Of a stretch of DNA of 64,000 nt, positions 27,741 through 60,736 are shown piece by piece. The number at the start of each line of letters is the position of its first letter. Position 1 is the stretch's first letter. The notes under the pieces are model-generated. The model saw only the letters and a list, made by a program, of their open reading frames with translations. It ran no database searches and had not been told where the DNA came from. Both the position numbers and the translations under genes were made by a program. This stretch comes from an uncultured archaeon (GTDB lineage: Archaea; Thermoplasmatota; Poseidoniia; MGIII; CAYLMJ01): contig CAYLMJ010000001.1 of the NCBI GenBank assembly GCA_964384995.1, positions 24,221 through 88,220 on the forward strand, given 5' to 3'.

Positions 27741-28037
27741 ACAACTCGGAGACATCTCGGAGATAACTCGGAGATAACTCGAAGACAACTCGAAGCCACC
27801 TCGAAGCTACCTCGAAGCTTCTACGAACGATATACGAAGGAGTTACGAACGAGTACCGAAGGAGTAGCGAAGGTTGAATATAGCGGTACTATGGCGGTAC
27901 TTTAGCGGTACTTTAGGGGTACTATGGCGGCAATATAGGATCGATATAGAATTGATATACAATTGATACAGCCGGAATACAGGACGGATAGGGAATGGGT
28001 ATGGGGCGAGTCTCGGGAGAGTAGACAGGAGACACGA
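27741..28037. repeat. Phased tandem array of 27 consecutive 11-bp units that drift progressively in sequence
   Basis: Exact 11-bp register from 27741: acaactcggag acatctcggag ataactcggag ataactcgaag acaactcgaag ccacctcgaag ctacctcgaag cttctacgaac gatatacgaag gagttacgaac gagtaccgaag gagtagcgaag gttgaatatag cggtactatgg cggtactttag cggtactttag gggtactatgg cggcaatatag gatcgatatag aattgatatac aattgatacag ccggaatacag gacggataggg aatgggtatgg ggcgagtctcg ggagagtagac aggagacacga. Confidence 0.85.
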
Positions 28038-28098
28038 GCTATTCTCACCTGAGTTATGCTTTTTATCCTAAACCAGCATCAGGGTCATTGGAATCGAT

Positions 28099-31000
28099 AT
28101 GGCGGGCGCTCATACAACCCTGAGATGGATGCGGCTTGGCATCGTGATGTTCGGGACAGTCATCCTGTTACTGCTATGGGCAGGAGGAGAAGCCGAAGCT
28201 CAAGTGGACTACTCGATGGCCGTCGAGCACGACAGGATAAGGCTGTTGGAGAACGGGACCGGCGAGTCGAACCAGACCCTCTACCTTACCAACTTCTGCG
28301 CCCACACACTCACCATCGAATTAACGGTGGAACATGGGTCCCCAGTGGTCAATGTGACCCCCGTGGTGAGAACTGTGACACTGGGGTCTGGTGGTGATGG
28401 ACAGTACAATTATTCTATCGAATCCGAGAACGCGAATATCTCCAATGTTGAGGTGATCATCAACGGCAGGGTGACCCATGTCGATGGCGCAACCTCACCG
28501 GAACCGTACGAGCGCAGCGATACTTTCATTGTGCGAAAGCCTGCCAGTTTCGATTCTGATGGTTCACCCCTCATCTACTCAACATACGTGGGTGGCGAAG
28601 ACCGCGATCGAGGTTACAGCATGGCCGTCGATGATGATGGTTATGTCTATGTTACCGGTTATACCCGTTCAGCTGATTTCCCCATCACTGAAGGTGCCTT
28701 CAATGACACATTGAACGGATACCGGGACGTTTATGTTGCGAAACTGAGTCCCGACGGTTCGGATTTGATCTACTCCACATATGTAGGTGGGAGTAGTTAC
28801 GATGATATTGGTTCGGGAATTTGTGTCGATAATGAAGGAAGCGTTTACGTGGCAGGTTATACCGCTTCCGATGATTTTCCCACAACCCCAGGAGCGTACG
28901 ATAGGGAATACAACGGTGGTGAGGTGGACGGTTTCATATTCAAGCTTAGTCCCGATGGTTCAACTCTGGAGTACTCAACTTATATTGGTGGGAGTGCAAT
29001 TGATGGCATTCGGGATATTGCGATTGATAACAACAAGAACGTGACCGTGATCGGTATCACCAATTCCACGAACTTCCCAACCTCCACAACGGCAAAGGAC
29101 AGGTCTCACAACGGTCTCTTTGATGCCTTCGTCCTCAGGTTATCCGATAAAGGAACACAGCTCATGGCCTCCACATACCTAGGGGGCACGAATAATGACG
29201 AAGCTTATGCGATTGCACTTGACGACGATGGTCATGCATATGTGACAGGATACACAGAGTCTACAAACTTTCCGAAAACGAACGGGGTCTTTGACAGGAC
29301 CCACAACGGAGAGACCGACATCTTTGTTACCAAGGTCTCTCATAGTGGTACAACATTTCAATATTCAACCTTTGTGGGGGGTACGTATTGGGAGGAAGCA
29401 TACGATATCGTTCTGGACGATGAGGAATATGCCTATGTGACAGGCTTCACGGATTCCTACGATTTCCCCACTACTGATGGAGCATACAACCGATCCAAGA
29501 ATGGATGGTGGGAAGACATGTTCGTTTTCCAATTGAGTCCTTCGGGAACCTATCTCAAGTTCTCGACATACATTGGTGGGGAGGACGAAGATTACGGAAT
29601 GTCATTGGATGTGGATGTGGATGGCTCCGTTTACGCAGTTGGGCGTACATCTTCCAGGGACTTCCCCACCACTCCGGACACGTACAACCAGAGCACAGGC
29701 GGCAACATCATCCTTTTCATGCTAAAAGAGAATGGTACAGAGTTGGCATATTCATCAGCATTGGGTGGTTGGGAGGTGACTTATGTCTATGACATCGTCC
29801 ACTCGGGCAACGGCAACTGCTATGTCACGGGCTACACCTATTCCGGTTTCCCGGTTACGGATGGTGCCTATGATGAGACTCACAATATGGATAGTGACAT
29901 CTATGTCTTCAAGATGAAAGTGACCATCAACACTCCACTTATCGCCTCCATAAGATCCATATCACCGGCAGCTCCCAACGTGGGAGATGCGGTCAGCTTC
30001 AACGGCTCTGGTGAGGATTCCGACGGCTATATCACGGCCTATCAATGGCACTCGTCCATAGACGGCAACCTCAGCACCAATGTTTCGTTCACCACATCAA
30101 CACTCTCTCCTGGTGAGCACCTCATCACGTTCAGGGTCATGGACAATCGTAGTTACTGGTCAGAGAATGTCAGTCAGCTCCTCAATGTGAACCTCGTACC
30201 AACAGCTCACATTCAGTTGATGACCCCCGCCTACCAGCTCCAGGGCAAGACGGTCTATTTCAGAGGCTCAGGCAACGACACCGATGGTTCGGTGGAGGGC
30301 TACCAATGGGTCTCCAGCATCGATGGGACCATTTCCTCCAAGATGACCTTCAGCAAAACGACCCTCTCCAACGGAACCCACACCATCTCCTTCCGGGTCC
30401 AGGACGATGATGGTGCCTGGTCCTCCTGGGCCAATGCCTCCCTGAATATCCTGAATCCCGGAGAGGCTCCACCGGTGGCATCGATCATCTCCATCACCCC
30501 CACCTCTCTCAAAGCGGGTGAGCTGGTCAGCTTTCAGGGCAAGGGCGTCCACGCCTACTGGAATGTCACCCACTTTGCCTGGCATTCTGACATTCAGGGT
30601 TCGCTGGATCGGAACGAGACGTTCCATACCGATGAGCTGGTCCCCGGGACCCATACCATCAGCTTCAAGGTCACCGACGAGATGGGCGAGGAATCTGTGG
30701 AAGCGACCGCCATCGTGGTGGTGAGAGCGCCTGAAGGACAGGAGGACGATGACGACGGTCTGCCCCTCTTCCTCATCATCGGCGTCGTGGTCGTCCTCGT
30801 CGGTGCGGTGGGTGGATTCATGGCCTACAAGCAGAGACAGGGCGGGACTCCCGCGGTTCCAGCAGGCAAGGCCCAAGCCCCAGCAGCCAAAGCTCCTGCG
30901 CCAGCACCAGCACCAGCACCACCTTCTCCAGAAGCCGCCTACCAGCCTCCAGCAAAGGCTCCGGCTCCCGAACCTCAGAAGCCTCCTGCGCCAGAGACCG

Positions 31001-31110
31001 TCACGATCCAGTGTCCAAGCTGTCAGGGACGGATGAGGATACCGAAACTGGGCAGGCTTCAGCAGATCAAGTGTGAGGCGTGTGGATTGGAAGGTGAGTT
31101 GGAGGTCTAG
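28099..31110 (+). CDS. Surface protein: signal/anchor, SBBP-type beta-propeller repeats, three PKD-like domains, TM helix, Pro/Ala linker, C-terminal zinc ribbon
   Basis: Seven repeats of the form YSTY(V/I/L)GG ... D ... A(V/I)D ... G ... YVTGYT ... DFPTT.GA. Three repeats of GSG.D.DG ... Y.W.SSIDG. TM helix LFLIIGVVVVLVGAVGGFMAY. APAPAPAP linker. IQCPSCQGRMRIP ... IKCEACG. Confidence 0.85.
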   Translation: MAGAHTTLRWMRLGIVMFGTVILLLLWAGGEAEAQVDYSMAVEHDRIRLLENGTGESNQTLYLTNFCAHTLTIELTVEHGSPVVNVTPVVRTVTLGSGGDGQYNYSIESENANISNVEVIINGRVTHVDGATSPEPYERSDTFIVRKPASFDSDGSPLIYSTYVGGEDRDRGYSMAVDDDGYVYVTGYTRSADFPITEGAFNDTLNGYRDVYVAKLSPDGSDLIYSTYVGGSSYDDIGSGICVDNEGSVYVAGYTASDDFPTTPGAYDREYNGGEVDGFIFKLSPDGSTLEYSTYIGGSAIDGIRDIAIDNNKNVTVIGITNSTNFPTSTTAKDRSHNGLFDAFVLRLSDKGTQLMASTYLGGTNNDEAYAIALDDDGHAYVTGYTESTNFPKTNGVFDRTHNGETDIFVTKVSHSGTTFQYSTFVGGTYWEEAYDIVLDDEEYAYVTGFTDSYDFPTTDGAYNRSKNGWWEDMFVFQLSPSGTYLKFSTYIGGEDEDYGMSLDVDVDGSVYAVGRTSSRDFPTTPDTYNQSTGGNIILFMLKENGTELAYSSALGGWEVTYVYDIVHSGNGNCYVTGYTYSGFPVTDGAYDETHNMDSDIYVFKMKVTINTPLIASIRSISPAAPNVGDAVSFNGSGEDSDGYITAYQWHSSIDGNLSTNVSFTTSTLSPGEHLITFRVMDNRSYWSENVSQLLNVNLVPTAHIQLMTPAYQLQGKTVYFRGSGNDTDGSVEGYQWVSSIDGTISSKMTFSKTTLSNGTHTISFRVQDDDGAWSSWANASLNILNPGEAPPVASIISITPTSLKAGELVSFQGKGVHAYWNVTHFAWHSDIQGSLDRNETFHTDELVPGTHTISFKVTDEMGEESVEATAIVVVRAPEGQEDDDDGLPLFLIIGVVVVLVGAVGGFMAYKQRQGGTPAVPAGKAQAPAAKAPAPAPAPAPPSPEAAYQPPAKAPAPEPQKPPAPETVTIQCPSCQGRMRIPKLGRLQQIKCEACGLEGELEV

Positions 31111-31160
31111 TCTCTAACTTGAACGTTCGACGCCTCGGCCCCACCTGACAACACTAAAAC

Positions 31161-31284
31161 CGAGATGGTGGAACCAAACAGCCTGTGGATGGCCGGACGC
31201 CTAACCGTGGAACCTACCAGCCTGATGGCGGCCTGTCGCCAGCCTATCTCAGACCTGGCCCCTAACCGTGGAACCAGCCGGTGG
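31161..31284. repeat. Three degenerate copies of a GTGGAACC-containing unit; the last copy is the 3' end of CDS 31262..31546
   Basis: gatggtggaaccaaacagcctgtggatgg (31164-), ctaaccgtggaacctaccagcctgatggcgg (31201-), ctaaccgtggaaccagccggtgg (31262-). Confidence 0.55.
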
Positions 31285-31546
31285 TCTCGGGGCCGCCCTT
31301 GGCCGCGGCTATCATCTTGAGGGCCTGCTCCATCTCGACGGCTTCGGCCTCGCCCATGAGCTTGCGGAACTTCTCGGTCCACTCCTCGTCGGCCAGCACC
31401 TTCCAGGGACAGCCCGAGTAGCTCTGGGCCCCCTCCTCGGTGAAAATGACTATCTGCTCGAACTGGGGGTTGGCCTGGAACTCGATGTCCTCGAAGACAT
31501 CCGAATCGCCGCTGGGCAGGAACACCTCGATGCGCTGGGCTTTCAT
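31262..31546 (-). CDS. Hypothetical small acidic protein (94 aa)
   Basis: ORF with balanced, protein-like composition, flanked by repeat tracts. No motif recognised. Confidence 0.5.
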   Translation of the reverse strand: MKAQRIEVFLPSGDSDVFEDIEFQANPQFEQIVIFTEEGAQSYSGCPWKVLADEEWTEKFRKLMGEAEAVEMEQALKMIAAAKGGPETTGWFHG

Positions 31547-31627
31547 GGTCGGTCTCCATCTATCGGATACCTACACGCAGGGCACCGGGGCTATTTGGGT
31601 TTTGGGCCTGGGCCTGCCTTTGCTGGT

Positions 31628-31697
31628 GGAGGAAGCGCAGGAGGAGAAGGAAGCGTAGGAGGCGCAGGAGGCCGAGGATGCATGGAAGTGCAGGAGG
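31628..31697. repeat. Purine-rich GGAGG/GCAGGAGG drifting repeat
   Basis: ggaggaagcgcaggaggagaaggaagcgtaggaggcgcaggaggccgaggatgcatggaagtgcaggagg, read directly. It abuts the stop codon of CDS 31698..33737. Confidence 0.5.
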
Positions 31698-33737
31698 CTA
31701 AGGCGGGTTGCGCGGCTTCCAGTGGTCGGGGTCGGCGGCCAGCTCCCTGCGTCTGGCCTTCCTGCCGGCGTTCCATGTGGCTATCTGAGTGGCCTTGTCC
31801 TCATCGAGCTCTCTCTCACGTTGGCGTCCAAGATAGTTGAACAGGGCCACTATGACGACCAGCAGGAGCAGGAGGCTTTGGGCGAACATGGCGTGAACAT
31901 CGGCTCTATCGACGTTCGAAGCATCATCCTCTCCGGGATATGACTCCCATATGGTTGCAGGCATCTTTCCCTTCTCCACAGGCAGTACCAGATTCTGGAA
32001 GTAATAGTGACTGGGAGTCTTCCTAATGGATATCAATACATTCATGTGGTCCTCATCGTAAAATGGAGGTACCTGGACCACGACCTCTTGTTCTTTCATG
32101 AACGGTGAAATTCGATAGTCTTGCTGGTAGGTGCTAATAGGGGCCCATAATCCAGCCATCATTTGACTATATACATTGAATCTTACCTCAGAATTATACG
32201 CGTACGAAGGGACCTCATCCTTCAACCTCATTCCATCCGGAATATGAAGTTTCAGACTATTCTTACTCCCCGTGAGGAGGGTTCCATTGGCTTCGACCAC
32301 CTGCATTTCAATGTCTTCGGCATGCTTATCACCACCATTCTCCCATGAGAACCATATACATTCAATATGGTTTCGATGGGAATAGGTGGATGAATTGTTG
32401 TAATACACATAGATCATCCCTTTCATTCCCCTTTCAACCGACACTTCAGGGCGGTCGAATTGTACTATCAGAGCGCCATCCAACCCGATGTGGTAATTAC
32501 CCTCATGCAGTATCCCGAAATCAGATAGATAGATCACTTTGACCTCCTCTCCTGCAGGCATCGGACTGTTGTTGGAGATCATCTGAAACTGTTGATAATG
32601 GCTATGATTAAAGCTCAAATAATCATGATACCACCGGTATAATCGAATTCGGCTAAATTTACTAGACTTATAGATATCAACTGAGTTGCCATTATAATGT
32701 GAGGTGCTCGAACCGTTGACCCACACTGCCCAGTCGAGATATGAGGATGACTTCTTGATGTACGAATAATCAAGGGTGAACTCTACCACACCACTTGCAT
32801 TGGTAACTCCACTCTCCCTGTGATCTGTTCCTCTGATACTCCAGGGGACCTCGACCTTCACCCCGCCAACCGGATGAGCATGTTTTTCTACGACCCCGAT
32901 CAACAGCACAGCTCGTTCCTCTTCGATGTTCTTCCACTTGTACCATGCCCTGTATGGTTCGTAGTAGACCTGGTAGTTGCTGAAGAGCTGATATGTTCCT
33001 TGTCCCTGCTCGTGAAAAACCGTACTTCGAAATTCGACAAAATCAACACTGGTTGAATTGAAGCGATGGGTGTCTGGTACCGTGTAGTTAAGTCCGTAAA
33101 TCCCCACCCCCCATCGCTCAAAATGGATCGTCTTTCCATCAGCTTTAATATCTACATTTGTCGGATCCACCATTGTCTGGTTGAATTGACATATCAATAC
33201 CAGGGTGAATTTCTCTCCGGGCAGGACCCGATCATAAGAACCGTATCTTATGAATTGGGTCTTCAGTCCGGTTGGTTCATCTCCCACGGTGTACTCGTAT
33301 TTTGAATGGGGATATTCCAGGGGTAATTCCCAACTCTCAATGTTGTACTCTAGAGTATATTCACCGATCAAACGGTGCCTGGCTTGAATATGGATAGAAT
33401 TGGACCACAGATGCGACTCTTCCAATTGAAAACTGATCAGATACTCCCCCACGCCAATTTGAACAGGTTGTAAGTAGAATCTTTCATGACGCTGGTTGGT
33501 AATGGTCACATTCAATTCCGGCAGTTCGACCCTTTCACCGTTCTTGAACCCATGCAGGGTCAGGTTGACGGTCTCATTCACTCTGAAGACACTTTGCTCC
33601 CGGGTAAGGTAAATATCCCAGTTAGGAAGGGTAGAGCTACTACTGCCAGAACCTCCCTCTGCATCCATCTTGAAGCTGAACACCATGCAGAAAAAGAGAA
33701 AGAAACACAGTGAAGCTGCTACCCTTAGGCGAACCAT
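31698..33737 (-). CDS. Low-GC secreted/membrane-anchored glycoprotein-like protein (679 aa) of unknown family
   Basis: N-terminal signal peptide (VAASLCFFLFFCMVFSF), many NxS/T sequons, C-terminal TM (LLLLLVVIVALFNYL) and a basic cytoplasmic tail. Ectodomain DNA is strongly A/T-enriched. Confidence 0.75.
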   Translation of the reverse strand: MVRLRVAASLCFFLFFCMVFSFKMDAEGGSGSSSSTLPNWDIYLTREQSVFRVNETVNLTLHGFKNGERVELPELNVTITNQRHERFYLQPVQIGVGEYLISFQLEESHLWSNSIHIQARHRLIGEYTLEYNIESWELPLEYPHSKYEYTVGDEPTGLKTQFIRYGSYDRVLPGEKFTLVLICQFNQTMVDPTNVDIKADGKTIHFERWGVGIYGLNYTVPDTHRFNSTSVDFVEFRSTVFHEQGQGTYQLFSNYQVYYEPYRAWYKWKNIEEERAVLLIGVVEKHAHPVGGVKVEVPWSIRGTDHRESGVTNASGVVEFTLDYSYIKKSSSYLDWAVWVNGSSTSHYNGNSVDIYKSSKFSRIRLYRWYHDYLSFNHSHYQQFQMISNNSPMPAGEEVKVIYLSDFGILHEGNYHIGLDGALIVQFDRPEVSVERGMKGMIYVYYNNSSTYSHRNHIECIWFSWENGGDKHAEDIEMQVVEANGTLLTGSKNSLKLHIPDGMRLKDEVPSYAYNSEVRFNVYSQMMAGLWAPISTYQQDYRISPFMKEQEVVVQVPPFYDEDHMNVLISIRKTPSHYYFQNLVLPVEKGKMPATIWESYPGEDDASNVDRADVHAMFAQSLLLLLVVIVALFNYLGRQRERELDEDKATQIATWNAGRKARRRELAADPDHWKPRNPP

Positions 33738-33749
33738 CAGTAGTACACC

Positions 33750-35690
33750 TTGCTAGCATCTGTCAGACTCTTCCAGGCCATAACCTTTTGGCCGCAGCTG
33801 GGCTCTCACGACACCTTGGTCACCAACAAGGAGGGGCCCGGCCCCAACACGCCCAGCGCTCCCCGCCACGACCATCCGCCCTCACACCCCCTCAGGGAGG
33901 AGGCGGCCCGGCTCCCCAGGTCGCCCGGGGTCTATCTCTTCAAGGACCGTCAGGGCAAGGTGCTCTACGTGGGCAAGGCCGTGCGCCTGCGGGAGCGGGT
34001 GCGCAGCTACTTTGCCCCCTCCCATCAGAGCCGGTTCTGGCAGGACATGGTGGCCCGACTCCTCCGCTCGGCCCGGCGGCTGGACCACATCGTCACCTCC
34101 AACGAGCGGGAGGCCCTGGTCCTGGAGGCCAGCCTCATCCAGCTCCACCGGGCACCCTTCAACGTCCGCTTCACCGATGACAAGCGCTACCCCTACCTCA
34201 AGCTCACCAACGAGCCCTATCCCCGGGTCACCATCGTCCGCCGACTGAGGGACGACGGCGCCCGCTACTTCGGCCCCTTCACCGACATGAAGGTCAAGCA
34301 GACGGTGCGGCTGGTCCGCGCCCTCTTTGGCATCCGGGACTGCAAGAAGCTCCCCGACCGGGCCTGCCTCAACTTCCATATCGGGCTCTGCACCGCCCCC
34401 TGCATCGGTGAGGTGGACCACGAGACCTACGCCAGCCAGGTGCGGGACACCACCGACTTCCTCCGGGGCCGCAACCGGCCGGCCCGCAAAGCTGTCCGCC
34501 AGATGATGGAGCAGGCGGCCAAGAAGGAGGAGTTCGAGCGGGCCGCCGACCTGCGGGACCATCTGGGCCGCCTGGAGGTGCTGGCCGAAGGGCAGTCAGC
34601 CGAACTGCGGTCCACGAAGGAGGCCGATGTCATCGCCCTGGACACCGCCTCGGGCCTGGTGCTGATTGTCCATGTCCGGGAAGGGCGCTTGCTGGGCCGC
34701 TCCCACTTCAAGCTGGACCATACCAGCGAGCCAGAGCCGGGAGAGGTCATGGCCCAGTTCCTGGCCCAGTACTACGGGGGCAGTGAACTGCCGCCCCTGG
34801 TGCTCCTGGAACTCCAGCCCTCCGACCACGCCACCATCCAGGATTGGCTGACCTCCCTTCGGGGCTCCCGGGTGACCCTGGCGGTCCCGGCCAAGGGAGA
34901 GAAGCGCAGACTGCTGGACCTGGCGCTGGAGAACCTCGCCAACCTGAAGGTGGAGCGGGGCAGGCATCCTTCCCCGCCTGACCTGGCCCTGGGCGCTGAC
35001 CAGCGGGAGCTGGAGGTTGTCCTGGATGGACTGCAAGGTGTCCTGGGGCTGAACCTGCGGCCCACCACCATCGAGGGCTTCGATGTCTCCACCCTCCAGG
35101 GCTCCCACACCGTGGGGGCCAGGGTGACCTTCCATGAAGGCCTGCCCGACAAGTCCCGGTACCGGCGCTACCGCATGCGGCGCAAGGCGGGGCAGGACGA
35201 CTACTCCGCCATGGAGGAGATGCTGGGTCGCAGACTGGCCCGGGGAGGACCACCACCCGACTGGCTGCTCATTGACGGCGGGCCCGGACATGTCTCCGCC
35301 GCCGCCTCGGCCCTCAAGGAAGCGGGCCTGGTCCCGGGTGAGGATGTGGAACTGCTGGGTCTGGCCAAGCGGGAGGAACAGCTCCACCTGCATGGAAGGG
35401 GCGCTCCGGTGAACCTGGACCGGAAGGACCCAGGCCTGCGATTGCTCCAGCGGGTCCGGGACGAGGCCCACAGGTTCGGCCTGGCCTACCATCGGCTCCT
35501 GCGCTCCAAGGCCCTGCAAGGTTCTGCCATCGAGGATATCCCCGGCATCGGCCCCAAGAAGGCGGCCCAACTGCTCACCCAATTCGGCTCCCTGGAAGGT
35601 ATCAGGCGGGCCAGCACGAGGTCCATCGCCGCTCTGCCCGGCTGGAGCGAGAGGTCGGCTGTGAAACTGAAGGCGGCCCTGAGACGGTGA
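33750..35690 (+). CDS. uvrC: Excinuclease ABC subunit C
   Basis: GIY-YIG block PGVYLFKDRQGKVLYVGKAVRLRERVRSYF, UVR domain, RNase H-like endonuclease region and C-terminal (HhH)2 (IPGIGPKKAAQLL). The start may be TTG 33816 rather than ATG 33750. Confidence 0.9.
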   Translation: MLASVRLFQAITFWPQLGSHDTLVTNKEGPGPNTPSAPRHDHPPSHPLREEAARLPRSPGVYLFKDRQGKVLYVGKAVRLRERVRSYFAPSHQSRFWQDMVARLLRSARRLDHIVTSNEREALVLEASLIQLHRAPFNVRFTDDKRYPYLKLTNEPYPRVTIVRRLRDDGARYFGPFTDMKVKQTVRLVRALFGIRDCKKLPDRACLNFHIGLCTAPCIGEVDHETYASQVRDTTDFLRGRNRPARKAVRQMMEQAAKKEEFERAADLRDHLGRLEVLAEGQSAELRSTKEADVIALDTASGLVLIVHVREGRLLGRSHFKLDHTSEPEPGEVMAQFLAQYYGGSELPPLVLLELQPSDHATIQDWLTSLRGSRVTLAVPAKGEKRRLLDLALENLANLKVERGRHPSPPDLALGADQRELEVVLDGLQGVLGLNLRPTTIEGFDVSTLQGSHTVGARVTFHEGLPDKSRYRRYRMRRKAGQDDYSAMEEMLGRRLARGGPPPDWLLIDGGPGHVSAAASALKEAGLVPGEDVELLGLAKREEQLHLHGRGAPVNLDRKDPGLRLLQRVRDEAHRFGLAYHRLLRSKALQGSAIEDIPGIGPKKAAQLLTQFGSLEGIRRASTRSIAALPGWSERSAVKLKAALRR

Positions 35691-38648: not shown

Positions 38649-41099
38649 ATGCGAAAGGCCACGACCTGGTGGGGACCCATACCCATAGCCCTCGTGACCG
38701 GGGTAGCGCTCCTGGTCCTGATGCTGTTCCTGATGGTCCTGGCGGCACCGGGTGGAAAGGCGGCCTCGCGTTCCGATGCAACTCCCCTGGTCGAAGACAA
38801 TGACGAGGTTGTCGGCGATGTGGACAAGTTCATGGAACAGTGTTGCGGTCTCTTCGTGGTCCTGGGGGCCATCTGGATCTCCTGGTCCTACTTCAGACGC
38901 TACTTCACGCGCAACAGCCTGGAGCGGGAGCTGGAGGAGCTCCATCGCATGCTCTCAGGGATCTCCCACACCATGCCCGTCCACAGCCTGGAGCAGGCCT
39001 ACCTGGCTCCCGGATACCGCGCTCTGGCCAACAAACACCACCGGGGGATGAAGATGGGGCTTCGTCTGGCCCGGGAGGGCAAGGAGAAGGTCAAGCGACT
39101 GGGTACCGACAACCAGCGCCTGCGCCATGTGCTCATGGAGGCCCAGAAGGCCTACCAGGAGTGCCGGGCCACCGGTTCCAACCCCGACCCCCTGCCCCTG
39201 AAGCAGGCCCAGAACGCCGCCAACCAGGGGCTTCCGGCCAACCAGGTCCATGATCTGGCCAGCCGGGCCCTGGAGACCTACCGGGGCTTCCTGGAGGTCT
39301 GCGAGGATGTGCGCCACACCCTGGAGGAGCTGGCCCACGAGATCGAGCGGGTAAAACCCTACCTGGCCGTGGCCCAGGCCCGCACCAACCTGAACCAGGG
39401 AAAGGCCGCCTGGCTTTCTGGGAAGATCGACCTGGCCGACCGCCTGGCCTACAGCAGTCTGAACCAGCTGCGCACCGACCTCAAGCAGGCCGAGCCCGAG
39501 CTGGTGGCCCAGATCGAGCGCAAGATACCAGCGGGTCTCTGGTTCCGCACCAAGCTCAAGATATCCAACGTGGGACGGGCCCATGCCCGGGAGGTCAGGG
39601 TCCGCCTGGAGGGGATCGAGTCCCAGCCCCTGCCCGCCGTGGAGAGCCTGCCGGCCGGGGAGACCGTGAAGCTGGATGTGGCCCTGAGGACCGCCCAGCC
39701 CGGCACCATCCCCCTGACCATCATCCTCACCGGCGCCCGCATCTACGACAACGGCCTGGTATCGTGCGAGCAGAGCGAATGGCTGGAGGTGGGTGTCGGA
39801 CCCCAGGCCGAGGCCCCGCCGGCGGACCAGCAATGGCAGGCCCCCAAACCTGTCGAGCCCGAGACCCCGGTGAAGCTCCTTCGGGAGCACGAGTTCTACA
39901 GGGGCTACGTGAGGGTGAAGGTGGCGGCCCACAACCGGACGGACACCGTGGTCACCGATGCCGCCGTGGAGCTCCATTTCGACGAGCAGGCCTTCCGCCT
40001 GGACCATGTGGAGCCCGAGTTCCGCGTGCTGGGCACCAAGGCCGTTCTGGGCAACCTGGGTCCGGGACAGAAACGGACCCTGGCCTTCTACCTGGACCCC
40101 CTCATCTGCACCCGTTCCCAGCTGGATGGCACCCTGGTCTACAAGGACATCCAGGGCAAATTGCACCTGGCCAAGATGCGCTCCAAGCAGGTGGAGGTCA
40201 TCTGCCCCATCTTCGTCACCCCCGAGAGTGCCAACGTGGCCACCCTGACCAACCTGGTGGGGGAGGTCCTGGAGCATTCCGATTCCAAGGTCTACAACCT
40301 GCCTCCTGCACTGGGACCGGCCGAGGCCTTCCTTCTGGCCCGGGAGGTACTGGGAGGACGGGAGATCCAGCATGTGCGCAACTTCTGCACCCCCCAGCCC
40401 TACACCGCCGAGGCCTGGTATTACGGCAAGACCAAGGTCAAGGGCCACGAGCTGGTGATGCGGGTGGCGGTGGACGAATCCACCAACTCCATCGAGCTCT
40501 TCGCCGCGGCCCCGGCCCAGGAGCCCCTAACCGGACTGCTGGCCGAGCTGGGTCACGACCTTCACGAACGGATGGAAGCCAGGGGCTGGCCGGTCAAGCA
40601 GGTCACCAACGTCACCATCCGCGACAGCGTCCTCAACCGCACCTCACTGCTCTTCAACCCACCGGAGGAGGCCCAGGAGGTGAAGGAGGCCAACGGGTCC
40701 ACCACCCTCACCGCGGTCTGTCCGGAGGATGGTCTCGATTTGCTGGGTGAAGAGGAGCAACCAGCCGGCGGCAGTAGCAAAGCGGGATCGCCGGCCGACC
40801 GCGAGGTCAATATCAGCATCGAGGATTCGGTGGTGAATCGAAGCGACATCACCACCGAACAAGACCTCTTGGAGACTCACGAAGGGACCAATGGCAGAGC
40901 ACCCGAATCGGTGGGACAGCCAGACCGAACCGACGAGGGACGACCCGAACCTGACATGGGAACGACCTTGACGGACTCCGACCCGGAGCCGGATGAAGAG
41001 GAAGCTCGGGCGGCAAAGAAGAGGCGCAAGCGGGGACGCCCCAACAGCCTGGACGAGGGATTGGAGAAACTGCGGGAGATCGAGCGGGAACTCTCTTAG
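38649..41099 (+). CDS. Membrane-anchored, mostly cytoplasmic 816-aa protein: 2 TM, long helical region, two beta-sandwich-like segments, alpha/beta segment, acidic tail with an AT-hook-like KRGRP
   Basis: TM1 aa 9-33 and TM2 aa 65-82. CARDB-like KISNVGRAHAREVRVRLEG ... GETVKLDVAL. A second module at aa 412-645 resembles the cytoplasmic end of the giant protein. Duplicated V.N(V/I)(T/S)I(R/E)DSV(L/V)NR(T/S) motif. TATA-like cataaatag lies about 25 nt upstream. Confidence 0.8.
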   Translation: MRKATTWWGPIPIALVTGVALLVLMLFLMVLAAPGGKAASRSDATPLVEDNDEVVGDVDKFMEQCCGLFVVLGAIWISWSYFRRYFTRNSLERELEELHRMLSGISHTMPVHSLEQAYLAPGYRALANKHHRGMKMGLRLAREGKEKVKRLGTDNQRLRHVLMEAQKAYQECRATGSNPDPLPLKQAQNAANQGLPANQVHDLASRALETYRGFLEVCEDVRHTLEELAHEIERVKPYLAVAQARTNLNQGKAAWLSGKIDLADRLAYSSLNQLRTDLKQAEPELVAQIERKIPAGLWFRTKLKISNVGRAHAREVRVRLEGIESQPLPAVESLPAGETVKLDVALRTAQPGTIPLTIILTGARIYDNGLVSCEQSEWLEVGVGPQAEAPPADQQWQAPKPVEPETPVKLLREHEFYRGYVRVKVAAHNRTDTVVTDAAVELHFDEQAFRLDHVEPEFRVLGTKAVLGNLGPGQKRTLAFYLDPLICTRSQLDGTLVYKDIQGKLHLAKMRSKQVEVICPIFVTPESANVATLTNLVGEVLEHSDSKVYNLPPALGPAEAFLLAREVLGGREIQHVRNFCTPQPYTAEAWYYGKTKVKGHELVMRVAVDESTNSIELFAAAPAQEPLTGLLAELGHDLHERMEARGWPVKQVTNVTIRDSVLNRTSLLFNPPEEAQEVKEANGSTTLTAVCPEDGLDLLGEEEQPAGGSSKAGSPADREVNISIEDSVVNRSDITTEQDLLETHEGTNGRAPESVGQPDRTDEGRPEPDMGTTLTDSDPEPDEEEARAAKKRRKRGRPNSLDEGLEKLREIERELS

Positions 41100-41233
41100 G
41101 ACCGTCCCCGGTCTTTTCAGAGACATGCCAGGGCCCAATGTTCAACCCCGGCCAGTTCCCGCTTCCTCTTGATGCCCTACCCCACCCAATCCCTTATATC
41201 GAGGGGCAATCTGGCCATTTGCGGAGAAGAGCC

Positions 41234-41827
41234 ATGGTGGATTTCGACCGCCTGATGGCCCTGGGAGATCTTGAGGGCCTCTACGAACTGCTGGACCACA
41301 GCGACCCCGCCACCCGCGGTCAGGCGGTTCAGGTCCTCGGTGAGCTGGGCCGGCCCAAGGCGGCTGCCCGTCTGGTGAAAGCCCTCTCGGATGAGGTCTG
41401 GGAGGTCCGCCAGGCCGCCAAGGAGGCCCTCATCAACCTGGGCGAGGCGACCCTGCCCGAACTGGAGGCGGTCCTGAAAGGTTCCGATGGCGATGTGCGG
41501 CGCTGGTGCGGCGAGACCATCTGCGCCATCGGCGGCCCGGCCACCTACGACATGCTCAGGAACCTGCTCAGGGACCCCGACGACCCTCGCCTGCGCATCG
41601 CCGCGGCGGAGGCCCTGGGGATGACCCGGGAGACCTTCACCATGGAGGTCCTGCTCCGGGCCCTGAAGGACGACTCCTGGGAGGTCCGCCAGGTGGCTCT
41701 GAAGGGGCTGGGACGGCTGGGGGACAAGGAGGCGTTGAAGCCCATCCGGAAGGTGCTGGCCAACGAAAGCAACGGCAAGGTCCAGACCACCGGCGAGACC
41801 GTGGTGGAACAGCTGGAACTGCTCTGA
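41234..41827 (+). CDS. HEAT-repeat (PBS-lyase HEAT-like) protein
   Basis: Repeated D ... VR ... A ... ALG ... A ... LL ... L.D units (SDEVWEVRQAAKEAL, DGDVRRWCGETI, DPRLRIAAAEALG, DSWEVRQVALKGLG). ATG 41234 was chosen. The track start 41138 would add a Pro-rich leader. Confidence 0.8.
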   Translation: MVDFDRLMALGDLEGLYELLDHSDPATRGQAVQVLGELGRPKAAARLVKALSDEVWEVRQAAKEALINLGEATLPELEAVLKGSDGDVRRWCGETICAIGGPATYDMLRNLLRDPDDPRLRIAAAEALGMTRETFTMEVLLRALKDDSWEVRQVALKGLGRLGDKEALKPIRKVLANESNGKVQTTGETVVEQLELL

Positions 41828-46010: not shown

Positions 46011-48152
46011 ATGGCCTTGGCGCGAGATTGGTACAGAACTGCCCTGCCTCCTCCATGCCGGAGGGTTGCCTGGGTGGCCCTGCTGGCCCTTCTGGGAGGC
46101 TTGTTTTCGGGAGCGCTGGACGGGACGGTCCTGGGAGCCAGGGGCGAGGGGCTGACCGTGGTGCTGTTGCTGGTGGATGACAGGGTCTATCAGCCCGATG
46201 ATCCCATCGAGGTGAACTTCTACTTCCAGAAGGAGGGGAACCGGGTCAACCCCGACGACGCGCCGGTGCTTCAGATCAATCCCGACACCCACGCCAACAA
46301 TGGCAGGGAATCCCGGGAGGTGAGCACGGAATGGGAGAACACCGGCCACTACACCTGCAACTTCAGACTTCAGGATGAGGATTACGGGGATATCGAAAGC
46401 GCCTACCTCTACGTGTCGGTCAAGGTCAAGGGCAAGCAGGTGGAGGACCATGACTACATCGATGTCGACGTGGGCTCGGCACCCCACGTCATCGACCTGC
46501 GGCTCTCCCACCTGGAGGCCCTGCCTGGGGACGAGGTGATGGCCACCCTCACCGCCAGGGACCGCACCCAGGATGATGCGCCCCTGGAAATGGAGGAGCT
46601 CGAGTTCCGGTACCGGCTCCCGGGGTCCGAACAGCAGAGCAGTCTCGATTTCGAACAGACCACCGGAAGGGCCACGGCCAGCCTCAGGATACCCATCAAT
46701 CTGGAACAGGCCGGAGCCTTGACCTTCACCGCCGAGGGCAAGGTTGGAGACGAACCGGTCTTCACCCGCTACGCCACGGTTTGGGTGCCCCTGATGCGCA
46801 TCTGGTTCCACGGCGTCTCCCTGGAAAGCGACAGCGCCTCCTTCCAGCTGTGGACAGCCGATGGTTCAGGCGAGTCATTGCCCGGGGTGGACCTGGAACT
46901 GGAATACCGCATCTACGACGAGGACGACAAACTGCTCAGGGAGGGCGACCTGACCGGGGAGACCGGGCCGACCGGGAGCCGCAAGTTCACCCTCGATCGG
47001 CCCAAGAAGGCCCACGAGCTGAGGCTCACCGGCTCGGCCTACCACAGTGTTGCCAACCGGGATTTCGTCTTCGACTGGGATGTGGCCCAGGTCTCGGATG
47101 CGGGTTTCAGGCTCGATCCCGTCTTCGATCGGTTCCACAACCAGAGCTTCTTCCCAGACAGCCAGGTCAACGTCCCCCTGCGGGTCCTGCGTGATGGGGC
47201 TCCTCTGGCCAACGCCAAGGGGACGGTGGTGGCCTTCTCGGCCGTGGACCTGCTGCACCAGGGTCGCATCGAGACCAACAGCCTGGGTCGCTTCGTCCTG
47301 CCCCTGGACCTGCCCGACCGGCCCGGTCCCATCAACGTGGCCGTCTTCGACCTGGCCGATGGTGGATTCGCCCTGTGGGAACTGGTGGTCAGGGACCTGC
47401 GGGTCAACCTGACCGTGGAGCTGTTCGACCTGGCCGGTCCCACCAACATGAGCCTGGAGATGCCCCTGGAACTCTCGACCACCGATCCCAACAACGGCTT
47501 TCCCCGTCTGAAGCTGGAGACGGCCGAGGAGGGACCTGGCCTGGGCTGGTATCCTGTGGCCGACCCGGCCAACGAGGCCAGCCAGCCCCGGTATCGCTAC
47601 CTCTCTCCCGGGGAGCCCGGGAACGACACCACTATGACCCTCTTCCATCTGACCATCCCCGATTTCCTGCCCCAGGAGGGAAAGGTCAGGTTCGCCATCG
47701 AGACCCTGGATCGCGACCGGGGGCGTACCACGACAGGCTACTGGGTGCTCCATCCTGGCGAGTCCACCGCTGATCTGCCTGGTCCACCCGACCCCATTGC
47801 CACTCCCGATGATGACACCGAATGGGGCTTGTACGCGGCCTCGCTGGTCTCGCTGGTCCTGTTGCTGTCTGTGGTCCTTATCGTGGTGATCCGCCGGAGG
47901 GGAGCTGGCGAGAAGGAGAAGGAGCGGGAGAGCTGGGAGCTACCTGTCGAGTCCGAAGTGGAGGCCACTCCAACAGCGCCCCAGCCACCCTCCGAGCCCT
48001 ACTACGGCGCGCCGGCCGAGGCCCCGCCTCCGCTGAGCCTGGTACCCTGTCCCCATTGCGGCAACACCATGGGAGTGGCCCTTCAGCCCGGCCAGCAGGT
48101 GCTGGTGGCCTGCCCTCACTGCGCCGGTCAGTGCCGGGTGGGTGGAGGATAG
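46011..48152 (+). CDS. Surface protein (713 aa): signal/anchor, Ig-like ectodomain, TM helix, Pro-rich linker, C-terminal zinc ribbon
   Basis: N-terminal VAWVALLALLGGLF. C-terminal TM LVSLVLLLSVVLIVVI, then PTAPQPPSEPYYGAPAEAPPP, then VPCPHCGNTMGV ... VACPHCAG. Confidence 0.8.
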   Translation: MALARDWYRTALPPPCRRVAWVALLALLGGLFSGALDGTVLGARGEGLTVVLLLVDDRVYQPDDPIEVNFYFQKEGNRVNPDDAPVLQINPDTHANNGRESREVSTEWENTGHYTCNFRLQDEDYGDIESAYLYVSVKVKGKQVEDHDYIDVDVGSAPHVIDLRLSHLEALPGDEVMATLTARDRTQDDAPLEMEELEFRYRLPGSEQQSSLDFEQTTGRATASLRIPINLEQAGALTFTAEGKVGDEPVFTRYATVWVPLMRIWFHGVSLESDSASFQLWTADGSGESLPGVDLELEYRIYDEDDKLLREGDLTGETGPTGSRKFTLDRPKKAHELRLTGSAYHSVANRDFVFDWDVAQVSDAGFRLDPVFDRFHNQSFFPDSQVNVPLRVLRDGAPLANAKGTVVAFSAVDLLHQGRIETNSLGRFVLPLDLPDRPGPINVAVFDLADGGFALWELVVRDLRVNLTVELFDLAGPTNMSLEMPLELSTTDPNNGFPRLKLETAEEGPGLGWYPVADPANEASQPRYRYLSPGEPGNDTTMTLFHLTIPDFLPQEGKVRFAIETLDRDRGRTTTGYWVLHPGESTADLPGPPDPIATPDDDTEWGLYAASLVSLVLLLSVVLIVVIRRRGAGEKEKERESWELPVESEVEATPTAPQPPSEPYYGAPAEAPPPLSLVPCPHCGNTMGVALQPGQQVLVACPHCAGQCRVGGG

Positions 48153-50450: not shown

Positions 50451-53400
50451 TCAGCTTCCTTCCAGGAGCTCGTAGACCTCGCCCAGCTTCTCCTTGAACT
50501 GCTCCCTGAAGGCGGCGACCCCCTGGACCAGGGTGAGGGGGCGCTCGGCCACCAGCTCGACGGCCATGGTGTCGTGGCGCAGGCTCAGCCAGGCCACCAC
50601 CTGCTCGGCGTGGGCATCCTGTCCGCCCCACACCGAGTCCTCCACGATGGCGGGTCCCGTGGGGTCGGCCTCCAGGACCAGCTCGGGCAGGGTGCGCAGT
50701 CCCAATTGGTGGAGGGCCGACCTGGCCCTCTGAGCCACCATCTCGCCCTTGATCAGCTCGGGCAGAGGATACTCGATTGTGATGCGATCGCCTCCTGTGC
50801 CCTCCAGCAGGCGGTGGGCCCGGGCCACATCGCTGATGATTGTGAGCTTGGTCAGGTTCGACTGGATAGTCTTGGGCTCCAGCTCCATTATCTCCCAGCG
50901 GCCGGGGATGTGGTAGCCCAGCTTGCCGGTGCATTCGCCCTCGCCCTGGGTCCTGGGCTCCAGGGGGAAGAGGAAGGTCTCGGTGCTGGAATTGGGGATG
51001 CGGGGCAGGTCCACCCGATTTGTCGCCGGACCGTGGGCCAATCTTCCATCCCAGGTGAGGTGGATGACGCCGCGATTCATGTCGAACCGCCCGTTGTTGA
51101 CCACCTTGACCTGCCACAGCAGGCGGCCCCTTCTTGCCACCAGGCTGGTGTCCAGCTCCACCTGGCGCAGGGCCAGCCGGCCCTTCAGCTGCTTGGGCAG
51201 GAGGGCCCGGGTGGGGTCCAGCAGGGTCTCCAGTTCGGCGGTGATGGCCGTCCGCTCCTCGGGACTGATCTTCACCGGCTCGCCGTCCACGAAGGCCGTG
51301 CGCCCCTCGAAATAGCGCAGGAGGTCCTCGGCCGCCTCCCAGATGGGCTGAGGAGGACGCCCCTGGCAGACAAGGGCCAGGAAGTGATGCTGACCGGTGA
51401 TGAGCATCATGGTCTGCCCCCGCTCCAGCTGCCAGGGTCCCAGGTAGCCCAGCTGACCCGGTCGGGCGCCGGCCATCTCCCTGGCGCTGTCCAGGATCTC
51501 TCGGGCCAGCACCGGGTCGACCCCTGCGCCACCCACGACATCCTCCCTGGAGGCGTGGGCGATGGGGCGACCTTCCCAGCTCACCAGGAAGGCCTCCTCC
51601 ACCATGTAGGGCGGCATCTGGGCCAGTTCCCGCAGGGTGGCGTTGTGAGCCCGGGCCGTTGCGCCGCCCAACACCATGGTCATCAGTCCCGCCACCATGA
51701 TGATGCCGATAAGTCGGGCGGTGATCCAGGGCTTGTTGGCGTTGGCACCGATGGGCGGCGCGTCGACCTTGAAGGTAACCTCTTGGGGCTCGGAGAGGCC
51801 GCCATCGTTGTCCACGGCCACCACCACGAAGGTGCGGTTGCCTCCCCCCACGTTGAAGGCCTTGAGGGAGAACTGTGACTGGCGGCCCAGCAGTGAGCTG
51901 TTCTTCAGGCTCCAGAGGTATTCCACCACCTCGCCATCCTGGTCGGCGCCCTCGGCGGTGAACACCAGGTCACCCAGCTCCTGCTCCACCGACATCCTGG
52001 TGATCTCGGGGGGCTTGTTGAGCACCTGGAAGGGCACCACCACCTCGGGCCAGGCCCGGCCGCCCTCGCCATCCTCCAGGGTCAGGTTGACCCGGTAGTG
52101 TCCCATGGGCCAGGTGGCCGCTACGGTGAAGGTGGCCCGGTGGGTCTGGTTGGCCGGATGGTAGACCACCTCCTGCAACGGATAGTAGCTGGCCGAGGAG
52201 CCGTTCTCGGGGTTCAGGCGGAGGGTCCAGCCCAGGACGGCAACCGGGGTCTCCAGGTCGGTGCCATTGACCCACAGGGTGGCCTCGTGGGTGCGGGTCA
52301 CGATCCCGGTGAGGTTGACCCCCGTGAGGTTGGGGGCGTTGTTGCGCACCGAAAGGTTCACCGGCCCCCACCACCCAGATAGACCGCCCTCGTCATCCAC
52401 CAGGCGGGCGTAAAGCTCCATGGCACCCAGATCGGCCGTCAGGGGCACCAGCACCTCACGCTGATAGGCCGCCGGCTCGCCACGTCCACCCATTCCGCCG
52501 AGACCGTCATCTGAGGGGCCTCGGCCGCTCTCATTGAGGGGCCACAAGAGGGGTCGAATGGTCTCACCGTCCAGATAACCGAACTGGGGTGTCAGATCCC
52601 AGGGAAGGGACTCGGGGTCACTGCCATCGAGGAGGATGAACAGCGACCCACCCCGCAGGATGGTGTCGGCTTCGAGGCTGAAGTTGGCCACCCGGGGCGG
52701 GTTGTTGAGCACCTTGAGGGCAGATCTCAATCTAAAGAGGGTGGAGGTCCCGTTGTCGGGGTCGGTGAGCTGGACCTGGAAGGTGTAGTTGCCCAGGGTG
52801 GCGTTGGAAGGAGGGGTGAAAGTGGCCTCCCAGCGGCCTCCGCCCAGGGGTGACCAATTGGGTTCCGAGAGCCATAGGCCGGTGAAGGCATCGAGATCTG
52901 TGGGGCCCTGGGTTACATTGACAAGCATCTGGTCGGAGAGATGGTCGAGGTCTAGGGTTTGGATCTGCAACAGGGCCTCCTGACCCCGAAAGACCTGGGT
53001 CAAGTTCAGGGTTATCTCCTCTACCCGGGGCAGATTGTTGTGCGCCTCCAAAGCTGGTGTCTGGGACTCCCACCAGGGGGTGGAATTGCCATCACCATCG
53101 GTCACCTGCACCCGCATCGAGTAGTTGCCAAGGGTCACTCCCGCCGGCAGGGGCCAGGTCACGTTGTAGCCGCCTGACGCAACATCACGGGTTGTGACGG
53201 AGGCCGCGACCCAGGTGGCGTTGGTGCCAAAGGGCCGGTACTCAAGGCGGGTCGACAAGGAGGGGGCCGGGGTCTCGAAGTCATGGGCCAAAACCATGAC
53301 CCTGACCTCTGAATTGCGCAGGGGGGTGGCATTGTGGACTACATATCCCTGGAGGTGGGGTGGGGTGTTGTTCAACGTGAACAGCCCGTTCACCACGAAC

Positions 53401-57107: not shown

Positions 57108-57533
57108 ATGGTTTTTGTCGGTTATGTGTCCAAAGGCCACCCCATCGGAATGGGGCGCATGTTCTGTTCCTCATGCCAATCCGAGACCACCTGGGTCCGG
57201 GTATTGCAAAAGAAAGCGTTCACGTTGCTCTTCATCCCCTTGTTCCCACTGGGTCGATCGATAAAAGTGATATGTGGTGGATGCGGTCTGAAGCAGAAGA
57301 ACACCGAGTTCACTGATGATCTGGGAGCTGCCATCATGCAGCAGATGGCCGCCGGTCAGGCCTCTGAATTGAACCAGACCCCGGGTTTGGAGCAGACCCC
57401 GGCCGAATCACCAGCTCCACCCATGGTTGCGGCCAACGGGAGTACAGGGAACAGTTGCCTGGGATGCGGCCGTCCGGTAAAATTGCCCCCAGGACAGTCT
57501 TATTGCTTTTCCTGCCGGGAAGGACAATCATAG
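57108..57533 (+). CDS. Zinc-ribbon membrane protein (zinc_ribbon_15-like N-domain plus a second C-terminal zinc ribbon)
   Basis: FCSSCQSETTW ... AFTLLFIPLFPLG ... VICGGCG architecture, a Gln/Pro/Ala linker, then CLGCGRPV ... YCFSC. Confidence 0.7.
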   Translation: MVFVGYVSKGHPIGMGRMFCSSCQSETTWVRVLQKKAFTLLFIPLFPLGRSIKVICGGCGLKQKNTEFTDDLGAAIMQQMAAGQASELNQTPGLEQTPAESPAPPMVAANGSTGNSCLGCGRPVKLPPGQSYCFSCREGQS

Positions 57534-57588
57534 AACACCAACGACAAGTGCCGCAACCCCTTTGAAGGTCAGGGTCCATTCGGGGCCG

Positions 57589-58302: not shown

Positions 58303-58304
58303 GC

Positions 58305-59965: not shown

Positions 59966-60064
59966 GAAGGGGACTGAGCGGCCCGGAACGGAACGGGACA
60001 AGGCTCGGCTCGAGACCCCGGTCTGGGGACAGGAAGATGATGAGGAGGAAGGGAGCGAAAGGGC

Positions 60065-60229
60065 TCAGGCGTCGAACTCGTCCTGAAGCTCGGTGACCAG
60101 CTGGTCGAGCACCTCGTCGAACTCGGAGGAGCGCAGGACCTTCTGGTTCTGGAACCGGGAGGAATCGACCCGGACGATGTAGCTGGCGCCTTCCTTGAGC
60201 AATTCGATGGAACAGACGTCTTCACTCAT
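60065..60229 (-). CDS. Possible 54-aa acidic protein (too short for the ORF track)
   Basis: Own translation: MSEDVCSIELLKEGASYIVRVDSSRFQNQKVLRSSEFDEVLDQLVTELQDEFDA. More protein-like than the overlapping 118-aa frame 59869..60225. Confidence 0.35.
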   Translation of the reverse strand: MSEDVCSIELLKEGASYIVRVDSSRFQNQKVLRSSEFDEVLDQLVTELQDEFDA

Positions 60230-60580: not shown

Positions 60581-60736
60581 GGACCCCGAGTGCCCCGGTC
60601 GGACCGAACTGTCGGGTCGGAACTGGCGGTGAGGAAGCGTCACAGAAGGCTAAGCGTTACAGAAGTCGGTCGATGATGGGAGGGAGAGGAGCGGTGTTAC
60701 TGAGGGGCAGGGATTTGTGATAATACCGAGGCGGTT

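Follow-up and report, generated by a model that had tools for sequence, protein, structure and literature searches.

The 64,000-nucleotide (nt) window analysed here, from an uncultured marine archaeon of the Thermoplasmatota, encodes an 816-residue protein that we regard, with moderate confidence, as a membrane-anchored scaffold facing the cytoplasm, in which a module with a predicted likeness to the appendage ("ear") domains of vesicle-coat adaptors would act as a docking platform in a network for clustering or sorting membrane proteins. In eukaryotes, adaptor ears serve as hubs when vesicle coats assemble. In archaea, the discussion of appendage-like domains has so far treated them as components of loci for the endosomal sorting complex required for transport, ESCRT (Makarova et al. 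2024, PMC11188069). Here such a module has a different role: it apparently forms the cytoplasmic end of proteins of the membrane and the cell surface, in a genome without detectable ESCRT genes, and it is accompanied by a dedicated short tail peptide, which is also present on a HEAT-repeat protein. Coordinates refer to positions in the window unless a contig or locus is named; the whole genome measures 2.63 Mb and is 89.8% complete. The gene and the two sub-domains of its module are located as follows.

38649..41099, plus strand: gene for the 816-residue membrane-anchored protein with an adaptin-appendage-like module (translation of the open reading frame, ORF)
39870..40196, plus strand: module sub-domain 1, a predicted immunoglobulin-like (Ig-like) beta-sandwich, residues ~408-516 (AlphaFold2 strands at model residues 9-117; predicted local distance difference test, pLDDT, ~90)
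40236..40583, plus strand: module sub-domain 2, a predicted alpha/beta platform with the elements H-E-H-E-E-E-E-H in TBP-like order, residues ~530-645 (AlphaFold2 secondary structure)

The module occupies ~265 residues (about 405-670) and is predicted to adopt a sandwich-plus-platform fold. An AlphaFold2 model of 291 residues, built from a 16-sequence family alignment, combined a beta-sandwich with a TBP-like alpha/beta platform (pLDDT 84.3; predicted template-modelling score, pTM, 0.72). Invariant in this alignment are YLDPxIC, CPIxxT, ExW and GxxA(E), and WYYG and LTGLLAELG are nearly so; YLDPxIC falls in the sandwich, and ExWYYG and LTGLLAELG in the platform. In a Foldseek comparison with the PDB, the best 15 matches of the module were the gamma/beta appendages of COPI and the alpha/beta2 appendages of AP2 (E 5.6e-10 to 8.5e-6), with 9qpq_H, 1pzd, 1r4x, 1e42 and 1b9k among the structures matched, these five at E 5.6e-10 to 1e-6. 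These alignments span 241-270 columns and so cover both sub-domains, which bears out the resemblance to adaptor appendages that a first-pass annotation of the window had offered as speculation. The sandwich alone was matched by GAE/gamma-ear domains, the BBSome subunit 6vbv_7 appeared lower in the list, and a viral structure library returned no meaningful match.

The Foldseek ranking also ruled out three other readings of the module, as Roadblock/longin, arrestin/Spo0M or CARDB. The first of these had been raised in the annotation for the alpha/beta unit, which in that case would be a Roadblock/LC7 or longin domain regulating a small GTPase. The genome does hold four small GTPases with strong Pfam Ras matches of ~1e-36 to 1e-39 (C54:4449-4943, C15:51180-51674, C6:38429-38920 and C25:18460-18951), an apparently high number for an archaeon outside the Asgard group, and a Roadblock gene (Robl_LC7, 9e-15) beside a GTPase-containing 509-residue ORF at C6:79421-80925. 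Additionally, three paralogs of the 816-residue protein, including a giant protein described below, carry a Roadblock-like domain. The fold prediction contradicts this reading for residues 530-645, where the order H-E-H-E-E-E-E-H is that of a TBP-like platform and differs from those of Roadblock (alpha-beta-beta-alpha-beta-beta-beta) and longin (beta-beta-alpha-beta-beta-beta-alpha); no MglB, longin or LC7 structure stands in the top 50 Foldseek matches, Pfam finds no Robl_LC7 there, and no GTPase gene of the genome adjoins a module gene. We therefore give the Roadblock reading almost no weight.

The anchor and the N-terminal half of the protein are made up of four further features.

38676..38747, plus strand: hydrophobic segment 1, residues ~10-33, a first transmembrane helix or a signal peptide (Kyte-Doolittle 19-residue means up to 3.0)
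38838..38894, plus strand: hydrophobic segment 2, residues ~64-82, the putative membrane anchor, followed by RRYFTR (hydropathy ~1.5; kept in 3/3 orthologs)
38901..39518, plus strand: helical region, residues ~85-290 (alignable over residues 164-290 to L006 and L007, relatives from the Thermoplasmata)
39522..39803, plus strand: first beta-sandwich, CARDB-like, residues ~292-385 (in a block conserved with P0007-P0012 from residue ~281 on)

The N-terminus MRKATTWW recurs in the 85%-identical ortholog P0006, as does hydrophobic segment 1, which P0004 and P0005, called as shorter genes, lack. For the other ~730 residues a cytoplasmic location is predicted, because the stretch RRYFTR that follows segment 2 would, by the positive-inside rule, stay inside. 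This agrees with the annotated topology of two N-terminal helices and a cytoplasmic remainder, with the qualification that one hydrophobic segment is strong and the other weaker and that the orientation is deduced. The helical region matches no Pfam family at E <0.06, and the N-terminal regions of L006 and L007 give weak YfdX-like matches only. These two relatives are 35% identical to the 816-residue protein over residues 164-680 and share its architecture. On the description of the first sandwich as CARDB-like, the profile matches are divided: the 816-residue protein itself has no match to Pfam CARDB (PF07705), and the equivalent position in both relatives passes the cut-off of 22.7 bits (29.1 and 24.8 bits, E 1.2e-6 and 2.6e-5).

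A search with residues 280-680 found 38 homologs (E 1e-266 to 1e-45), whose common part is the ~265-residue block. The module is a mobile domain of archaea: it can be N- or C-terminal in its proteins, and the domains that it is combined with vary widely, including WD40/PQQ propellers, TPR, HEAT, PKD, CARDB, FGE-sulfatase, bPH_3 with a Zn-ribbon, archaellin-like, Kelch and CHAT domains. Proteins with an "adaptin appendage region", composed of Ig-like and TBP-fold domains, have been described from "Meth_adaptin" ESCRT loci of Methanosalsum zhilinae, for example WP_013898571.1 and WP_013898578.1, where they accompany Vps4, ESCRT-III, an SPFH plus Zn-ribbon protein and ProX; in Asgard archaea, the appendage region is combined with longin in multidomain proteins (Makarova et al. 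2024, PMC11188069). We collected related loci with a 6-sequence module alignment. One of them, L016 from Methanolobus sp. ZRKC2, encodes a protein 39% identical over module residues 7-269 (tblastn E 1e-61) and has the gene order SPFH plus Zn-ribbon, Snf7, Vps4-like AAA ATPase, module plus Zn-ribbon protein, which fits the published description of Meth_adaptin. In a locus from ANME-2 archaea, an AAA ATPase that matches Vps4_C is encoded within a few kb of module genes. Because the homologous Methanolobus protein sits in a matching locus, the module of the 816-residue protein can be placed by its sequence in the Meth_adaptin appendage-region family, whose fold family was published in 2024; the link runs via Methanolobus. 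The module is thus assignable to a named family, where the annotation had assigned none.

Among 201 sampled genomes of the class, the full module was found only in this genus. Order-mates with genomes of 1.0-1.3 Mb (G022, G066, G068 and others) carry the sandwich half only, in ORFs of 2,000-7,474 residues, which points to a wide distribution, across the order, of giant surface proteins whose cytoplasmic tail is ear-like. Elsewhere, the family is expanded in tandem in Candidatus Methanoperedens, where a metagenome-assembled genome holds four consecutive genes that match the module hidden Markov model (HMM) at E 2e-129 to 1e-13 (L012:2215-10628). In Thermoplasmata archaeon bin983 (CP070629.1), a C-terminal CHAT (caspase-like) protease is fused to the module at L010:6969-9950 (E 2.5e-32), a fusion which suggests that enzymatic effectors, too, can be delivered by the module. 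A weak Vps4_C match in the same bin983 chromosome lay inside the module protein itself and was set aside as spurious.

The first-pass annotation had matched the module, block for block, to the C-terminal cytoplasmic part of a giant protein of 2128 residues encoded on the opposite strand of the window, whose tail contains two features.

51300..51614, minus strand: Roadblock/longin-like domain of the giant's cytoplasmic tail, residues ~1742-1846 (AlphaFold2 order beta-beta-alpha-beta-beta-beta-alpha, pLDDT 60-82)
50457..51161, minus strand: diverged copy of the sandwich plus platform in the tail of the giant, residues ~1893-2127 (family HMM, hhalign, Foldseek)

BLASTP between the 816-residue and giant proteins gave nothing significant. 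The family HMM aligned to residues 1940-2098 of the giant at E 0.003 (single target), and hhalign of the tail and its 79% ortholog against the family alignment gave a probability of 60%, E 8.4e-5 and 218 collinear columns in a register that reproduces all three block pairs of the first-pass annotation. The highest score among 60 column-shuffled tails was 23.5, compared with 38.6 for the real pair. A phmmer search of the tail against 1.8 billion representatives found only the ortholog, one spurious repeat protein and P0044, which bridges the two proteins: its residues 223-389 are homologous to the Roadblock-like part of the giant (E 5e-4), and its Roadblock-like domain is followed by a canonical module (E 1e-97). 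The paralog at C4:3159-5537, with PKD, transmembrane, Zn-ribbon and Roadblock-like segments ahead of its module, has the same Roadblock-like plus module layout. Since so few matches allow no deep alignment, the AlphaFold2 model of the tail, which was built independently of the module family, is poor (pLDDT 52). It shows the order longin/Roadblock, helical linker, sandwich and alpha/beta unit, and its Foldseek matches to the beta2-adaptin appendage 1e42 (4e-5), AP mu subunits and gamma-COP appendages are supportive only. For the Roadblock/longin-like domain, Foldseek listed MglB, Sec22b longin, sedlin and the AP mu N-terminal domain, with a TM-score of ~0.5 on the target; Pfam Robl_LC7 does not reach it. 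With HMM, hhalign above 60 of 60 shuffles, the bridging protein and Foldseek in agreement, we regard the modules of the 816-residue protein and the giant's tail, with good confidence, as homologous. Further copies of the module in the genome are on C4 and C27 and in three tandem genes on C3.

The C-terminal part of the 816-residue protein, beyond the platform, contains a duplicated peptide motif, I(R/E)DSV(L/V)NR(T/S), both copies of which were located where they had been annotated, and a conserved end.

40617..40643, plus strand: tail motif copy 1, IRDSVLNRT, residues 657-665 (pattern match)
40818..40844, plus strand: tail motif copy 2, IEDSVVNRS, residues 724-732, in an acidic, probably disordered tail (pattern match)
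41010..41096, plus strand: basic patch KKRRKRGRP and C-terminal helix NSLDEGLEKLREIERELS (ortholog comparison)

In six-frame ORFs of the genome, the motif was seen 8 times, as against 0.4 expected from shuffles, and all 8 copies are in the C-terminal part of six proteins. The carriers are the 816-residue protein (two copies), the three tandem C3 proteins, a 287-residue HEAT-repeat protein and a protein with GYF_2 and a Zn-ribbon; the over-represented pattern, xDS(V/I)(V/I)x(R/K)(S/T), therefore occurs on module-bearing and module-less proteins alike. Among the module-bearing ORFs of the collected loci, the motif closes the module in 44 of 65. The HEAT-repeat carrier (C5:86539-87402, minus strand) ends in GDYVSGSKTTVTDSVISRS and keeps this DSV tail in orthologs of 78-86% identity, of which there are only three among its 120 best homologs; the tail is absent from the 117 more distant HEAT proteins, so that a wider family combining HEAT repeats with a DSV tail is not supported. 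The remaining carrier (C20:28787-29683, minus strand; 298 residues) combines the motif VSDSVISRS with GYF_2 at its N-terminus and a CxxC...CxxC zinc ribbon at its C-terminus, and lacks an ear module. We found no mention of the motif strings in the literature. The DSV motif is a candidate ligand of the module.

The last 18 residues of the 816-residue protein (NSLDEGLEKLREIERELS) are identical in 3/3 orthologs, and the acidic tail ahead of them varies. A paralog at C3:53913-57065 has a similar C-terminus, SLDEGIDQLRKF, and the 47%-identical relatives P0008 and P0009 have a SHOCT-type C-terminus in this place. The polybasic RGRP patch (41010-41036, KKRRKRGRP) resembles an AT-hook, as does KRGRPKKKGKK at the C-terminus of the 35% relative at L006:3997-6087, and could bind acidic lipids or nucleic acid. 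The C-terminus of the C4 paralog is also polybasic.

Directly downstream of the 816-residue gene lies the HEAT-repeat gene with which the first-pass annotation had paired it.

41234..41827, plus strand: HEAT-repeat protein gene, 197 residues from the ATG at 41234; the longest ORF starts at 41138 (Pfam)
41194..41199, plus strand: TTATAT, resembling a TATA box and lying 35-40 nt ahead of the HEAT start codon (conserved block)

The HEAT assignment is clear (HEAT_2 4.5e-36, HEAT 5.5e-22, HEAT_PBS 1.3e-15), and the start at 41234, preferred in the annotation, is backed by ortholog calls of 197 residues beginning with MVDFDRL. The gene begins 134 nt past the 816-residue gene on the same strand and stands directly downstream in orthologs at 81-85% identity. 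The block AATCCCTTATATCGA, which contains TTATAT, is kept in the ortholog loci L040 and L042 amid a spacer that otherwise differs, and this suggests that the HEAT gene has its own promoter. Upstream of the 816-residue gene are uvrC, a cyclophilin (PPIase), RibD_C and PurN, and past the HEAT gene follows an M32 carboxypeptidase. Adjacency of the HEAT gene was found only where the entire uvrC-PPIase-RibD_C-PurN-...-M32 synteny stays intact, so it says little on function.

Beyond this synteny the association is sporadic. No HEAT gene lies within 8 kb in L006 and L007, which share the architecture, or in about 30 other loci. Nine of the 50 loci have a HEAT ORF, and seven of these are the window or own-genus ortholog contexts; since the genome holds ~12 HEAT genes, the rate of HEAT neighbours is near chance. 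The two others are L045, from a 47%-identical relative with different synteny, which has two HEAT genes within 6 kb, and L028:6330-8885, from a Methanomicrobiales genome, which encodes a HEAT-TPR-module fusion. A fusion is also found in P0011 (1064 residues, Logan assembly), where TPR and HEAT repeats precede the ear module and Adaptin_N is matched at 2.6e-12 and 46.5 bits (cut-off 37). P0011 and L028 thus have the domain order of adaptin large subunits, outside Asgard archaea.

These observations can be read as signs of a split "proto-adaptin", in which the 816-residue and HEAT proteins would form an obligate two-subunit membrane complex of alpha-solenoid trunk and ear. The same-strand gene pair here and in three ortholog contexts, the N-terminal HEAT fusions in the independent relatives P0011 and L028, the two HEAT genes at L045 and the second HEAT protein of this genome with a DSV tail all speak for it. 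We consider it distinctly unlikely, as the adjacency is bound to the whole uvrC-to-M32 synteny, the HEAT gene has a TATA-like element of its own, most loci lack a HEAT neighbour and the module is fused as readily to WD40, TPR, Kelch, PKD and CHAT domains. Of the annotated pairing, what stands is a genuine HEAT gene that is adjacent in same-genus orthologs; what does not is a general association. HEAT is one of several interchangeable partner domains rather than a fixed partner, and the two fusions and the motif-bearing HEAT protein make a functional link between module and HEAT repeats possible.

The published relatives in ESCRT loci raise the question of whether the 816-residue protein is a cargo adaptor of an ESCRT machine, a role that has been proposed for Meth_adaptin systems, its ear and DSV tail recruiting ESCRT-III and Vps4 whose genes here are unassembled or too divergent to detect. 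Homologs inside Snf7/Vps4/SPFH loci in Methanolobus and near a Vps4-like ATPase in ANME-2 fit such a role, as do weak MIT-like matches in the relatives P0015 and P0027 (below the curated cut-off) and the incompleteness of the genome. Snf7 (E up to 1), Vps4_C and MIT (best E 0.3) were searched for in the genome without a match, and the Methanolobus Vps4-like protein as the query returned only PAN and a Cdc48 fragment. A same-genus genome, searched only with MIT and the Methanolobus Snf7-like protein, matched neither. The neighbourhood of the 816-residue gene consists of housekeeping genes and has no association with Vps4 or ESCRT-III, and most of the collected loci have no nearby Vps4. Conserved DSV motifs are nevertheless present on six proteins, and this conservation without a detected Vps4 means that the motif's partner cannot be only the MIT domain of Vps4. 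An ESCRT adaptor is therefore, in our estimation, an improbable explanation.

Our preferred reading remains a membrane-anchored, cytoplasm-facing scaffold. On the inner side of the membrane, the module would be a platform on which short peptides or partner proteins dock, as with adaptor ears in eukaryotes, whose platform and sandwich sites bind short linear motifs (DPF/W, FxDxF, WxxF), and the disordered tail, with its two DSV peptides, basic patch and invariant C-terminal helix, would display ligands or oligomerisation elements. The 816-residue protein, the module-bearing surface proteins and the soluble motif-bearing proteins could in this way be linked in one interaction network that clusters or sorts membrane (surface) proteins, apparently works without ESCRT-III or Vps4 in this lineage and has the neighbouring HEAT protein as at most one optional partner. 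A bolder form of this proposal is that the ear modules on the 816-residue anchor and the giant surface proteins bind the DSV tails of each other and of the soluble HEAT and GYF/Zn-ribbon proteins, a self-contained code that would build an ESCRT-independent, adaptor-like lattice of HEAT trunk and ear for sorting or clustering surface proteins. We put this forward as a long shot; if true, the lattice would be a prokaryotic analogue, and possibly a relative, of adaptor-coat logic outside Asgard archaea.

Several points count against the scaffold reading. Its function is drawn by analogy from the fold alone and its topology from hydropathy only, and the AlphaFold2 model gives no confident docking of the DSV peptide (pLDDT 61 falling to 31). 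No Pfam family (whole 816-residue protein, E up to 1) or NCBIfam family covers the module, and the family profile, run against PDB sequences, picked up nothing but an engineered protein at E 0.014, which was judged spurious. Superposition on the appendages is poor, with TM-scores of ~0.3 and a root-mean-square deviation of ~15 A; we attribute the low scores to a different inter-domain angle, and the match accordingly reflects local structural-alphabet similarity. Finally, ESCRT-III is hard to detect by sequence, and with the genome 89.8% complete the absence of ESCRT is not proven.

Some of these points favour another explanation, in which the likeness to adaptin ears is convergent or generic and the module is an output domain of surface receptors, specific to the lineage and used for signalling or ligand binding, with no part in trafficking. 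The pairing of an Ig sandwich with a helix-grip/TBP-like domain is common, and unrelated two-domain proteins (DUF4466, GH20) were also matched at E ~1e-4. The module stands behind many extracellular sensor-like domains and beside Roadblock-like domains, as a receptor output module would, and it has no sequence-level link to eukaryotic appendage families: Alpha_adaptinC2, Alpha_adaptin_C, B2-adapt-app_C and COP-gamma_platf gave no Pfam match in the 816-residue protein at E up to 1. Common descent of the archaeal module and the eukaryotic appendages is not supported beyond a likeness of predicted fold. The COPI and AP2 appendages nonetheless take all of the first 15 places in the structure search, with both sub-domains aligned, and we consider convergence unlikely.

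Other features of the window touch these subjects less directly. The window is archaeal DNA, with a class I lysyl-tRNA synthetase and a mean GC content of ~62%. Beside the giant gene, at 57334-59267, are ORFs of 375 and 320 residues, and a 713-residue ORF lies at 46011-48152 (plus strand); none of the three matches a Pfam or NCBIfam family. The stretch 28001-34000 is low in GC, with 0.48-0.50 in the 28-30 and 32-34 kb bins, 0.60 between them and ~0.64 around, and may be an acquired island. It holds a 1003-residue surface protein with an SBBP beta-propeller and PKD domains (28099-31110, plus strand) and an unassigned 679-residue ORF (31698-33737, minus strand). A second low-GC bin is found at 60001-62000.

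If the module binds the DSV peptide, the proteins described here would offer a simple, experimentally testable interaction system with a bearing on adaptor-type sorting before or outside eukaryotic endomembranes; otherwise, the module simply adds to a domain family that was described recently. It can be compared with three known systems. With the Meth_adaptin systems it shares the same Ig-like sandwich and TBP-fold module, and the Methanolobus protein also ends in a motif of the DS(I/V)(I/V)QRS type. It differs in that no ESCRT-III, Vps4, SPFH or ProX gene is near the 816-residue gene or was detected in the genome, in the anchor, helical region and CARDB-like sandwich that precede the module, and in the lack of a Zn ribbon. 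The host, moreover, belongs to the Thermoplasmatota rather than the Methanosarcinales, and has several paralogs, some with Roadblock-like domains.

The ears of gamma/beta-COP in COPI and of alpha/beta2 in AP2 are the best Foldseek matches of the predicted sandwich plus platform, and in the relatives P0011 and L028 the module comes after a HEAT solenoid, as in adaptin large subunits. In contrast to these ears, the module shows no sequence-profile similarity to them and has a different inter-domain orientation (TM ~0.3). Whereas the eukaryotic ears hang from a trunk by a hinge, the 816-residue protein appears to be anchored directly in the membrane; it has no HEAT repeats (Pfam), the HEAT protein being encoded separately. 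Like the Asgard proteins that join an appendage region to longin, the giant's tail and the paralogs on C4 and C27 pair a Roadblock/longin-like domain with the module. Here, however, the proteins concerned are single-pass surface proteins, whose cytoplasmic tail is formed by the pair, with no Vps28-C or Steadiness-box, the host is not an Asgard archaeon, and the 816-residue protein itself carries its ear without a longin or Roadblock domain.

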